A stretch of 64,000 bases of DNA from Escherichia coli (GCF_003790525.1 NZ_CP033635.1), one strand, 5' to 3'; shown: positions 21,401 through 28,002, numbered from the stretch's first letter. Notes: generated from the sequence alone by a model not told the origin. Numbers and translations: made by a program.

Positions 21401-24413
<3,013 letters not shown>

Positions 24414-24475
24414 ACACTGCCGGATGCGGCGCGAGCGCCTTATCCGGCCTACGGGTCGTGCATCCGACAACACCG
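24414..24475. repeat. REP element
   Basis: ctgccggatgcggcg ... gccttatccggcctac. Confidence 0.5.
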
Positions 24476-24495
24476 AATTTACAGGAACACAGAAC

Positions 24496-25320
24496 ATGCA
24501 AAACATTACCCAGTCCTGGTTTGTCCAGGGAATGATCAAAGCCACCACCGACGCCTGGCTGAAAGGCTGGGACGAGCGCAATGGTGGTAACCTGACGCTG
24601 CGCCTGGATGACGCCGATATCGCACCGTATCACGACAACTTTCATGCACAACCGCGCTATATCCCGCTCAGCCAGCCCATGCCTTTACTGGCAAATACAC
24701 CGTTTATTGTCACCGGCTCCGGCAAATTCTTCCGTAACGTCCAGCTTGATCCTGCGGCTAACTTAGGCGTCGTAAAAGTCGACAGCGACGGCGCGGGCTA
24801 CCATATTCTCTGGGGGTTAACCAACGAAGCCGTCCCGACATCCGAACTTCCGGCGCACTTCCTCTCTCATTGCGAACGCATTAAAGCCACCAACGGTAAA
24901 GATCGGGTGATCATGCACTGCCATGCCACCAACCTGATCGCCCTTACCTACGTATTGGAAAACGACACCGCGGTCTTCACTCGCCAGCTTTGGGAAGGCA
25001 GCACCGAGTGTCTGGTAGTGTTCCCGGATGGCGTCGGCATTTTGCCGTGGATGGTGCCCGGCACCGACGAAATCGGCCAGGCGACCGCACAGGAAATGCA
25101 AAAACATTCGCTGGTGTTGTGGCCCTTCCACGGCGTCTTCGGCAGCGGTCCGACACTGGATGAAACATTCGGTTTAATCGACACCGCAGAAAAATCAGCA
25201 CAAGTATTAGTGAAGGTTTATTCGATGGGCGGCATGAAACAGACCATCAGTCGTGAAGAGCTGATAGCACTCGGCCAGCGTTTCGGCGTTACACCACTTG
25301 CCAGTGCGCTGGCGCTGTAA
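24496..25320 (+). CDS. rhaD: Rhamnulose-1-phosphate aldolase
   Basis: Start at [15 protein letters not shown] (274 aa). Confidence 0.95.
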
Positions 25321-25329
25321 GGAGCAAAT

Positions 25330-25644
25330 ATGATCCGCAAAGCCTTTGTCATGCAGGTTAACCCCGACGCCCACGAAGAGTATCAGCGTCGGCATAATCC
25401 AATCTGGCCGGAACTGGAAGCAGTGTTGAAATCTCACGGTGCGCATAACTACGCCATTTACCTCGACAAAGCGCGTAATCTGCTGTTTGCCACGGTAGAG
25501 ATTGAATCTGAAGAACGGTGGAATGCGGTAGCCAGTACTGATGTTTGCCAACGTTGGTGGAAGTATATGACCGACGTTATGCCAGCTAACCCGGATAACA
25601 GCCCAGTCAGTAGCGAGCTGCAAGAAGTGTTTTACCTGCCTTAA
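25330..25644 (+). CDS. rhaM: L-rhamnose mutarotase
   Basis: 104 aa, synteny. Confidence 0.9.
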
Positions 25645-25684
25645 TGAGTTGCGGTGCCGGAAAATATCCAGCACCGCGCCTTCA

Positions 25685-27079
25685 TCAGAAGAAGTATTTA
25701 AAGCGAACGCGTGCGCCGTAACGGTCATCAGTATCATCACCGTGTTTTTTATCACCGTCGCTATCCAGAATGGAGTAATACGTCCCGAGGTAAATATTAA
25801 AGTTCTCCATATCCATCACATTAGCGAACTGATAAGACGCATGAATGGTGTGAATGGTGTACGTCCCTTCATCATCAATCCAGCAGTCGTTATCACAAAC
25901 TACACCGCTGAATTCATCAATCTTATTGTGCGCGTAGATATAACCCAGCTCGAAACGTTTCCACAGCGCGTTAATCCCGGCAGTGAAATCTTTCTCATTA
26001 TTAGCATCTAAATAGGCGGTATTAAGATTAACCACGACGCCATTTTCCGGATCCGTTTTCAGGCCATTCCAGGTCATGCTCATACCATAGCCGGTACGAT
26101 CGGACTGATCGACAAAATTACCCTTGCTATCGGTATAACCATAAGCATTATTTACTACGTTCGCTTCCATCGCTGCGGAAACGGTGAATTCTTCCGTCGG
26201 CGACCAGGCAATTACCGGACGCAGATAAGCAACATTTTTCTGCTGCTCCATATCGCGTCCATGATAATTACCGTCATTATATAAAGATGTTCCGTCTTCA
26301 AGTAACGTGTTTAACTCAAAATACCAGTTATCAAGTTGTTTGCTGACGAGGAAATTACCGCCAGCGTTAGAGCGCCCGCGGCCCTCTTTCATCATATAGA
26401 TATAACCGCTGCCATCGTCATAAAGATCGTTCGCAGTATTACCGGAATGTTCAACAAAGGTATCCTGATTCAGCGGGAACATATCGTAGGCTTCAAAACG
26501 GCCGACTTTGACCTTCCAGTCATTCTCTTTCCCAAAGAAGAATACCGCATCATCGATATTTACTGAACCGTGCATGTCCCCCAGCGGTTGTGCGGAGAAC
26601 CCGGCGAAATAGCCATTATCCAGTTTTCGCATACCATCAAAACCTAACAAAATACGACCATTGAGATTCCACTGTTCATTAGTGGGATCGCTATTCACAT
26701 CAGCGTTGGTCATTGCCAGCAGGCCATGATTACTTTCTGCATCCATATTAAATTCTACGTCGCCGTAGATTTTTAAATCGCCATAACCTGAGAGCAAAAG
26801 ATTAGGTGAGGTGGAGTTTTTCTTTGCAGATTCCGCCGTTGCCTGTCCATTTACCGGCGTATTGCCCTGGGCAGCCTTAATTTCGCGGATCTCAGCGGCT
26901 TGTTGTGTCTGCAGCTGTTTAACCTGGCTCTCTGCTTTTGCTGCCCGCATTTCTGCCGCTTCCAGGCGTTCTTCCAGCAATGCCATGCGTTGTTCCAGCG
27001 TTAAATGCTGTGTTTTTGCCATTCCGGTACTACATGCCAATAATAAACCGATGGCTAAAGATAATGTCGATTTTTTCAT
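25685..27079 (-). CDS. Outer-membrane carbohydrate-selective porin, OprB-like
   Basis: Signal peptide MKKSTLSLAIGLLLACSTGMA, coiled-coil LEQRMALLEERLEAAEMRAAKAESQVKQLQ, beta-rich body, C-terminal aromatic (RFKYFF). Confidence 0.7.
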   Translation of the reverse strand: MKKSTLSLAIGLLLACSTGMAKTQHLTLEQRMALLEERLEAAEMRAAKAESQVKQLQTQQAAEIREIKAAQGNTPVNGQATAESAKKNSTSPNLLLSGYGDLKIYGDVEFNMDAESNHGLLAMTNADVNSDPTNEQWNLNGRILLGFDGMRKLDNGYFAGFSAQPLGDMHGSVNIDDAVFFFGKENDWKVKVGRFEAYDMFPLNQDTFVEHSGNTANDLYDDGSGYIYMMKEGRGRSNAGGNFLVSKQLDNWYFELNTLLEDGTSLYNDGNYHGRDMEQQKNVAYLRPVIAWSPTEEFTVSAAMEANVVNNAYGYTDSKGNFVDQSDRTGYGMSMTWNGLKTDPENGVVVNLNTAYLDANNEKDFTAGINALWKRFELGYIYAHNKIDEFSGVVCDNDCWIDDEGTYTIHTIHASYQFANVMDMENFNIYLGTYYSILDSDGDKKHGDDTDDRYGARVRFKYFF

Positions 27080-27555
27080 TATTTACGTTCCCTGAAATAA
27101 AAGAGACCCTACGCTTTCCAAAAGGAATACGTATATAGAGAAATATAAGGTGTGCACTTTCGAATTTTTAATCCAACTTCAGCAGGCCGATGGATAGTAT
27201 CCCGCTGCATAATATGAGTAAATCCGCTGATTTCCTGGAACGTGAGGAATATAACAATAGTGCCTTTTTTAACCAAATATCGTAAAAAATATTAGATATA
27301 ATTCACGCTGACTCATAAGCCACAAATATAAATAACCTTGCTGCAAAACATGTGCGACAGTTAAACATTCACAACATCATTAAATAATGATTTTTTATTC
27401 ACTGAATTTATTTTTCCCATCAATATGTGCCTTACACCACAAAATTTATCCTTCACTCTGCCTTATATTGTCACGACTTCACGACATATCCGCGCTCATC
27501 ACAAAACCGCCCCGCCGTTACAATTAACTATAATATTTTTTCATGGAGTCCAATA

Positions 27556-28002
27556 ATGGCAGCACTTACTGCAAGCTGTATTGACCTGAATATTCAGGGC
27601 AATGGCGCTTATTCCGTTCTGAAGCAGTTGGCGACAATGGCGTTACAAAACGGTTTTATCACCGACTCACACCAGTTCCTGCAAACCCTGCTGCTGCGCG
27701 AAAAAATGCACTCCACGGGATTTGGTTCCGGCATCGCCGTGCCGCACGGTAAAAGCGCCTGCGTTAAACAACCGTTCGTGTTATTCGCCCGCAAAACGCA
27801 GGCCATTGACTGGCAGGCCAGCGATGGCGAAGACGTCAATTGCTGGATCTGCCTCGGCGTGCCACAAAGTGGCGAAGAGGAACAGGTCAAAATCATCGGC
27901 ACGCTGTGCCGCAAAATTATCCACCAGGATTTTATCAACCAACTGCGACAGGGCGACGCCGACCAGGTACTTGCTTTGTTAAATCAAACCCTCAGCTCAT
28001 AA
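27556..28002 (+). CDS. frvA: PTS fructose-like EIIA component
   Basis: Start at MAALTASCIDLNIQG (148 aa); longer ORF rejected. Confidence 0.85.
   Translation: MAALTASCIDLNIQGNGAYSVLKQLATMALQNGFITDSHQFLQTLLLREKMHSTGFGSGIAVPHGKSACVKQPFVLFARKTQAIDWQASDGEDVNCWICLGVPQSGEEEQVKIIGTLCRKIIHQDFINQLRQGDADQVLALLNQTLSS

Follow-up and report, generated by a model that had tools for sequence, protein, structure and literature searches.

The window analysed here is a 64-kb stretch (64,000 nucleotides) of Escherichia coli DNA, 100% identical to the chromosome of strain SMS-3-5 (NC_010498.1), and the subject of the analysis is one of its genes, a porin gene lying between the rhamnose and frv operons. Judged by its sequence, this gene is the chromosomal orthologue of rafY, a known and already annotated kind of porin. 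The data as a whole were best explained, with good probability in our view, by a rafY orthologue at its native site, which would encode a wide channel, be served by a CRP-type promoter and have been lost in K-12. The gene itself is ordinary: its porin family has been described, it already carries an annotation, and it was noted as "rafY2" in O157:H7.

A preliminary description made from the sequence alone had placed a 464-aa open reading frame (ORF) between rhaM and frv, convergent with rhaM. The ORF listing found it exactly at 25685–27079 on the minus strand, with an ATG start and 464 aa plus a stop codon, and confirmed that it was convergent with rhaM.

Family assignment and predicted structure

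Pfam analysis gave PF16966 (Porin-like glycoporin RafY, Porin_8), and not the OprB family to which the protein had first been likened. The match was strong (E 3.1e-154; 513.9 bits against a cut-off of 25) and ran end to end, with porin residues 104–464 aligned to positions 1–372 of the 372-position profile. The OprB (PF04966) and LamB (PF02264) profiles did not match the porin even at E ≤ 1, and NCBIfam had no model for it. All 45 aligned relatives also matched PF16966, while none of them matched the OprB profile at E ≤ 0.01. OprB membership was ruled out by Pfam analysis of the protein and its 45 relatives and by a profile search of the PDB, and no sequence-family relationship to OprB was detected. 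The reading of the protein as an OprB-family, substrate-specific porin (selective for glucose or another carbohydrate) was given practically no credence, its family membership having been refuted. What stood of the class first assigned, a carbohydrate porin, was a sugar porin with a coiled-coil extension. The association with catabolic genes was treated as context, and not as a criterion for membership of the RafY family.

Sugarporin_N (PF11471), the ScrY-type periplasmic extension, was matched by 13 of the 45 relatives at E ≤ 0.01 (best 5.9e-07). These matches fell at the homologous position, and in the window porin the match was below threshold (E 0.024; 15.3 bits against a cut-off of 25.7). 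The RafY-family members that match it share this type of N-terminal extension with the 18-stranded ScrY/LamB sugar porins (PF02264 plus PF11471), for which oligosaccharide substrates overlapping with those of RafY have been reported. The RafY family was small: a search of 1.84 billion representatives gave only 233 clusters (50% identity) at E ≤ 1e-3. Many distant members of the family were about 350–390 aa long and had no N-terminal extension.

The window porin shared 79% identity over 450 aligned residues with the RafY of the rafRABD-porin cluster in strain NB4833 (locus L003). This raf island was chromosomal and flanked by integrase and IS3 fragments; it carried the LacI-type rafR, the alpha-galactosidase rafA, the major facilitator superfamily (MFS) permease rafB, the GH32 invertase rafD, and a porin of 464 aa. 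The window porin and the RafY of the mobile rafRABDY operon (plasmid pRSD2 type) belonged to the same family end to end, had the same length, and shared the layout of N-terminal helix, linker and barrel. The nonsynonymous divergence (dN) between them was 0.38 for the N-terminal 99 residues and 0.08 for the barrel. Unlike mobile rafY, the window gene was chromosomal at the rhaM/frvA junction, had no rafR, rafA, rafB or rafD nearby, and possessed its own conserved promoter and a hairpin in the 5'-untranslated region (5'-UTR), both of which mobile rafY lacked.

The structure was predicted by AlphaFold2 from an alignment of 45 sequences, with a mean predicted local distance difference test score (pLDDT) of 81.6. 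On reading, the N-terminal sequence MKKSTLSLAIGLLLACSTGMA|KT has the appearance of a Sec signal peptide; pLDDT was below 50 over residues 1–22. Residues 12–16 of the signal peptide (27032–27046) read LLLAC, which is weakly lipobox-like. Cys16 was absent from the orthologues of Citrobacter, Kluyvera and other genera (GLLLVANNGFA|K), so lipidation is not a trait of the family. In the helix of residues 28–70, the best heptad register had hydrophobic residues at 11 of the 15 a/d positions, and the helix probably forms a coiled coil. Residues 1–99 were the fastest-evolving part of the protein, with dN several-fold above that of the barrel. In one E. coli allele (L091), an in-frame 21-bp deletion of codons 30–36 removed exactly one heptad of this helix.

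The model contained 16 long strands between residues 101 and 463, and 16 strands are also predicted for the RafY family in TCDB (1.B.15). The signal peptide, the N-terminal coiled coil and the C-terminal aromatic residue (Phe) of the preliminary description were thus borne out by the sequence, the predicted helix and the heptad pattern, and the outer-membrane protein that it proposed was modelled as a confident barrel of about 16 strands. The loop of residues 195–240 was the most conserved block in the family, KVGRFEAYDMFPLGQDTF...YIYxMKEGRGRS (KVGRFEAYDMFPL..DTF....YIY.MKEGRGRS), with D206, Y228 and R236 invariant. By analogy with L3 of classical porins, it would be a pore-lining or constriction loop. 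Two cysteines four residues apart were located in another predicted loop of lower model confidence (residues 391–404; 25868–25909; GVVCDNDCWIDDEG); both were also present in mobile RafY (GVVCNNGCWIDGEG), and they may form a disulfide.

No solved structure of any relative was found by sequence or profile search. The structural comparison of the model gave values of 24.0 for OprP, 23.4 for Omp-Pst1, 23.3 for Omp32, 22.8 for DcaP, 22.5 for VhChiP, 19.4 for OprB, 18.4 for ScrY and 18.0 for LamB, and OprB was not the closest solved fold. Identity to the classical 16-stranded trimeric porins (OprP, the Omp-Pst1/OmpF type, and Omp32) and to DcaP of Acinetobacter baumannii was 11–13%, with no family relationship. 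For LamB, there was neither a profile match nor an 18-strand barrel. According to the model, the fold combines a barrel of the general-porin type with a periplasmic stalk like that of ScrY or DcaP, and is not that of an OprB or LamB relative.

The porin locus in Escherichia coli and in other genera

The locus was surveyed in one genome per species (80 loci), with classification by marker proteins and a neighbour-joining tree of the barrel region. In this tree, the porins with at least 67% identity formed one clade, whose members were convergent with rhaM wherever the contig was long enough. Porins convergent with rhaM were present in Escherichia, Citrobacter, Kluyvera, Klebsiella, Raoultella, Enterobacter, Pseudocitrobacter, Superficieibacter and Trabulsiella, and in many of these loci the frv operon was located on the other side of the porin. 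The gene had been described as inserted between the two operons; comparative synteny contradicted this by showing the same porin convergent with rhaM in many genera. A recent horizontal insertion into SMS-3-5 was likewise rejected, on the same position in many genera and on synonymous divergence (dS) equal to that of the flanks. The G+C content was about 45% in the porin gene, 34–36% in the 477-bp upstream spacer and about 55% in the flanks; the lower G+C was common to the context of all orthologues and is not evidence of recent transfer.

The genes beside the porin varied. In Escherichia and Trabulsiella (L034), no further genes stood there, and frvA was the next gene upstream of the porin. 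In Citrobacter and Kluyvera, azlCD and an HTH_3/cupin regulator stood beside it. The order rafR-rafA-rafB-porin-rhaM was found in K. spallanzanii, K. grimontii, R. terrigena and Enterobacter JUb54 (L018, L019, L024 and L025), with an ORF for a Mac-type acetyltransferase between rafB and the porin in K. spallanzanii (L018). Enterobacter kpr-6 and ENT03 (L021, L031) carried rafR-rafA-rafB directly downstream of the porin and frvA upstream. The raf clusters of Klebsiella, Raoultella and Enterobacter at the rha/frv junction had no rafD. Upstream of the porin, K. michiganensis (L023, 248–5843) had LacI, MFS_2, GH32 and beta-helix protein genes, and Superficieibacter (L028, 788–5548) had rafB, GntR, a phosphotransferase system (PTS) EIIC and GH4. 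Clades at 65% identity or less were located elsewhere, one of them beside an MFS permease and a GH32 enzyme. The contig CACSKA010000012.1 (L030), titled "Chryseobacterium sp. 18061", showed the enterobacterial order frvRXBA-porin-rhaM and is probably mislabelled or contaminated.

The chromosomal raf clusters that Klebsiella, Raoultella and some Enterobacter species carry there point to the junction as the native site of raf genes, and the sequence comparison suggests that it is the native home of rafY. The porins of those clusters were orthologous to the window porin (74–76% identity) and convergent with rhaM, and the locus of Enterobacter JUb54 (L019) had the same CRP-like box; they differed from the E. 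coli locus in having rafR-rafA-rafB beside the porin, of which E. coli had none and no detectable remnant. Mobile RafY branched within the rha-linked clade as the sister of the Escherichia porin. Its dS to the window porin was 0.95, the lowest among the non-Escherichia relatives, versus saturated values (>2) for Citrobacter and Kluyvera. The simplest reading is that sugar cassettes were exchanged beside the porin and that a site of this kind, in a lineage close to Escherichia, was the source of the mobile raf operon.

Within E. coli, 5,426 complete genomes were surveyed, and the porin was scored as present when at least 80% of a 2.2-kb query was matched. It was present in 2,543 genomes (about 47%), and 2,814 had the empty K-12-type junction. 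About 1,166 of the carriers had lost frvABXR and the 5' end of yiiG by deletion and kept the porin; these included the ST131 strains EC958, JJ1886 and JJ1887 and also E41-1 (L090, 3281–4188). In this allele, the yiiG remnant was annotated as a DUF3829 pseudogene and was followed directly by fdhD. The other carriers, about 1,377 by subtraction, were of the SMS-3-5 type with porin plus frv, and included O157:H7. We take the phylogroups to be B2 for ST131, E for O157:H7, F for SMS-3-5 and A for K-12. A paper on O157:H7 stated that O157 has no rafRABD and has a homologue annotated as rafY2; because the O157:H7 genomes match the locus at full length, rafY2 is the window porin gene.

Between the SMS-3-5 and ST131-type porins, dS was 0.215 (0.23 for rhaM and 0.27 for rhaD) and dN/dS was 0.049. 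Comparison with two other Escherichia alleles gave dN/dS of 0.017 and 0.030, so that the overall range was 0.02–0.05 at dS 0.12–0.42. The dS values, similar to those of the flanking genes, show that the porin diverged along with its neighbours, and the low dN/dS shows strong purifying selection. The porin gene was intact in the window strain. A "common truncated allele" (P0057, 342 aa) was rejected, as two of its three examples were assembly gaps (runs of N); only L092 was real, where a 1-bp deletion at codon 118 caused a frameshift.

The same distribution bears on whether the cryptic frv PTS (frvABXR), which faces the porin across a shared 477-bp divergent control region, has this porin as its outer-membrane partner. 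The divergent frvA-porin arrangement in Escherichia, Trabulsiella and Enterobacter (L034, L021 and L031) would fit this. However, K-12-type genomes keep frv without the porin, the ST131-type genomes keep the porin without frvABXR under a dN/dS of 0.049, and several Citrobacter and Kluyvera loci have azlCD and the regulator, or no frv, on that side. The proposed frv-linked uptake was thus contradicted in both directions, and such a partnership is considered highly improbable.

In K-12 MG1655, rhaM and frvA (b3901/b3900) adjoined with a spacer of 300 bp and no porin, as stated in the preliminary description. Local alignment placed positions 165–298 of the K-12 spacer (the right ~135 bp) on window positions 27421–27554, and the first 165 bp had no match in the porin allele and no gene remnant. 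The porin was most likely ancestral at the locus and was lost in the K-12 lineage. Searches of the E. coli and K-12 spacers for remnants of raf, azl, GH4, GH32, regulator or porin genes gave only noise (E > 0.05). A common breakpoint of the K-12 indel and the ST131 frv deletion was considered and rejected, since the homology of E41-1 to SMS-3-5 reached ~27538, just before frvA.

The neighbours of the porin in the window were rhaM (25330..25644, plus strand), with which it was convergent, and frvA (~27557..28002, plus strand), from which it was divergent across the 477-bp spacer. Its public names were all generic (carbohydrate porin, porin or hypothetical protein); in RefSeq, the SMS-3-5 gene was named "carbohydrate porin" (WP_000749944.1). 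The hairpin between the two convergent stop codons (Table 1) had a similar GTGCC...GGCAC counterpart downstream of K-12 rhaM, and a scanner for intrinsic terminators made no call on it. One rafY-like copy was present inside the 64-kb window; outside the window, NC_010498.1 had a second place matched by the 2.2-kb query, which may be a second rafY-like copy. The rhaA-rhaD spacer was 82 bp in the window (24414–24495) versus about 450 bp in K-12 MG1655 and isolate 106, the K-12 spacer holding roughly 370 extra bases.

Upstream region of the porin gene

Alignment of the upstream regions across genera showed two conserved modules amid sequence that could not be aligned. The distal module consisted of a CRP-like box (27256→27241), 18 nt, TTTACT, 17 nt, and TACTAT. 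The box was unique in the window, where 0.12 occurrences were expected, and stood upstream of 32 of the 36 chromosomal orthologues scanned. It was absent from mobile rafY and from four Klebsiella/Raoultella loci in which the porin directly followed operon genes. The spacing box-18 nt-TTTACn-17 nt-TAnTnT was constant in about 25 of the 32 loci, whereas the elements were separated by variable sequence and lay at varying distances (169–234 nt) from the ATG. The centre of the box was at −61.5 relative to the predicted distal promoter, the class I position known from lac P1. The right half of the box, TCACGTTC, was identical to that of a site at ~21564–21579, which we take to be the CRP site of rhaBAD. 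On these sequence features, the gene would probably be expressed from a CRP-type class I promoter.

The proximal module was the 5'-UTR hairpin, upstream of a nearly invariant ribosome-binding site. About 27 of the 32 orthologues had a hairpin at this offset, formed by other stem sequences, with a mean z of −2.0 against dinucleotide shuffles. No Rfam family was found at E ≤ 1 in 25000–28000, a region that includes the hairpin. The coordinates of all features are given in Table 1.

The promoter region also bears on a possible tie to rhamnose catabolism, in which the porin would serve as the outer-membrane entry for rhamnose or rhamnose-containing oligosaccharides. The adjacency of porin and rhaM was kept in about ten genera while the other flank varied, and a lone TTTCCTG heptamer at 27231–27237 (plus strand), between the box and the −35, resembles the core common to the PrhaBAD half-sites. 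The heptamer region was not conserved outside Escherichia, however, and the heptamer probably arose by chance. When the porin promoter was aligned locally with PrhaBAD, the top score was 11; shuffled sequences averaged 9.3, and 11% of them reached that score. Control by RhaS/RhaR was rejected because this alignment was not above the shuffles. In addition, porin and rhaM are convergent and thus not co-transcribed, K-12 and the 2,814 genomes with the empty junction have an intact rha operon without the porin, and the same-strand upstream genes in other genera are raf, GH32 or GH4 and not rha. Rhamnose is also a monosaccharide, small enough for general porins. The rhamnose-linked uptake proposed in the preliminary description was left with the conserved adjacency in its favour, and a tie to rhamnose is regarded as very unlikely.

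Table 1. Positions of the porin gene, the segments of its product and the surrounding features in the window
Feature	Position	Strand	Basis or detail
Segment differing from K-12, ~1.78 kb (porin plus 340 bp upstream)	25645..27420		K-12 has 165 bp of unrelated spacer here
Porin coding sequence, RafY family	25685..27079	-	ORF, PF16966, RefSeq, 79% identity to operon RafY
Hairpin GCGGTGCCGG-AAAATAT-CCAGCACCGC	25651..25677		between convergent rhaM and porin stop codons; read from sequence
Signal peptide, residues 1–21 (MKKSTLSLAIGLLLACSTGMA), cleavage predicted before K22	27017..27079	-	read from sequence
Periplasmic N-terminal helix, residues 28–70, probable coiled coil	26870..26998	-	AlphaFold2 pLDDT ~90
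Low-complexity linker, residues 71–99	26783..26869	-	AlphaFold2 pLDDT <50
Beta-barrel, residues 100–464, ~16 transmembrane strands, C-terminal ...RFKYFF	25688..26782	-	
Long loop between strands 5 and 6, residues 195–240, candidate constriction loop	26360..26497	-	non-strand in the AlphaFold2 model
CRP-like box TGTTATATTCCTCACG	27241..27256	-	8/10 positions of TGTGA-N6-TCACA
Predicted distal promoter	27194..27222	-	-35 TTTACT 27222→27217, 17-nt spacer, -10 TACTAT 27199→27194
5'-UTR hairpin ACGTATTCC-TTTT-GGAAAGCGT	27111..27132	-	~20 nt upstream of the ribosome-binding site
Ribosome-binding site AGGGAA, within conserved TTTATTTCA(A/G)GGAA block	27088..27093	-	nearly invariant alignment columns

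Proposed function and significance

In the proposed mechanism, the product would be exported by its Sec signal peptide and fold into an outer-membrane barrel of about 16 strands, with the conserved long loop probably lining the pore and a flexible linker joining the periplasmic coiled coil to the barrel. By homology with the characterised RafY, the protein would most likely be a wide, non-saturable diffusion channel, which would admit di- to tetrasaccharides, along with other solutes that are too large to pass OmpF/OmpC, and would serve whichever inner-membrane sugar transporters the strain has. The analysis established the gene's family, the fold class of its product, its synteny, how often it occurs in the population and that it is under purifying selection; the channel properties, the substrates, the oligomeric state, control by CRP and the direction of the K-12 event are inferred. 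The CRP-cAMP-dependent class I promoter, accompanied by the conserved 5'-UTR hairpin, would probably be active under carbon limitation. The genetic link to oligosaccharide genes was absent in E. coli, where the gene is an orphan, and was present in the orthologous loci of other genera.

Several points weigh against the reading of the gene as a native-site rafY orthologue with a wide channel and a CRP-type promoter that was lost in K-12. The first 165 bp of the K-12 spacer are unmatched and hold no gene remnant, so the K-12 event was no simple deletion or clean excision. The hits did not include the representative genomes of other Escherichia species, which would call for repeated loss or a more complicated history. 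The tree of the barrel region was a neighbour-joining tree without bootstrap. A scanner for consensus promoters did not call the distal promoter and found instead a proximal one (TTAAAA-18-TATATT at 27171→27142); an mRNA started there would carry the hairpin at its extreme 5' terminus. The left half of the box is weak (TGTTA, not TGTGA), and a different regulator could bind it. The AT-rich upstream region (34% G+C) may be silenced in laboratory conditions. As for the channel, the RafY properties used here were taken from citing papers, through which a wide general-diffusion channel permeable to raffinose-size sugars is known for plasmid RafY alone. In the literature searched, no experiment on the chromosomal copy was found, and the sole mention was "rafY2" in O157:H7.

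A related porin has been described in K. pneumoniae. In strains without OmpK35/36, mutations of a LacI-type repressor de-repress a permease-hydrolase-porin operon, and its RafY-family porin GlyP alone suffices for the fitness gain (bioRxiv 10.64898/2026.03.29.715108). GlyP belongs to the same family according to its authors, which shows that a RafY-type channel can be an alternative general uptake route; it differs from the window porin in its locus and in its dedicated repressor, the operon order being LacI-permease-hydrolase-porin. GlyP probably corresponds to the distant clade (~60% identity) beside MFS and GH32 genes.

The window porin might also be a silent leftover not expressed for nutrient uptake, or its present benefit might be of another kind, such as standing in for the major porins where these have been lost. 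It is an orphan in E. coli, with no adjacent catabolic genes or dedicated regulator; its upstream region is AT-rich, half of E. coli does without it, and the frameshift of L092 is real. The K. pneumoniae relative is normally repressed and matters once OmpK35/36 are lost. Against this stand the dN/dS range found above, which is incompatible with a neutral relic, and the conservation of promoter, ribosome-binding site and 5'-UTR hairpin across genera, and we consider this explanation unlikely.

The gene encodes a strongly conserved channel and is carried by about 47% of the complete E. coli genomes, among them those of the ST131 and O157:H7 lineages. Because K-12 is without the gene, the standard model strain is uninformative on this porin, and the porin of major pathogenic lineages is not known to have been studied. 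The work on GlyP indicates that porins of the RafY type are able to take over from the major porins and to alter fitness in gut communities (bioRxiv 10.64898/2026.03.29.715108); therefore, the E. coli counterpart could be relevant to competition for nutrients and to the permeability of resistant strains deficient in porins.

The synteny survey suggests an origin for the mobile raffinose operon and shows a conserved porin beside exchanged sugar-utilisation cassettes. A wider reading, which we put forward tentatively and hold to be less than probable, is that the porin is the fixed anchor of a hotspot of sugar utilisation in Enterobacteriaceae: a constant, CRP-controlled wide porin would be kept at the rha end, with interchangeable raffinose, GH32 fructoside or GH4-PTS cassettes mostly just upstream of it; the mobile raf operon would have been captured from such a site in a near relative of Escherichia, and the orphan of E. 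coli lineages such as ST131 and O157:H7 would be a starvation-induced channel for large solutes. If this is true, the orphan porin could affect the scavenging of oligosaccharides in the gut and the permeability of the outer membrane to bulky antibiotics.

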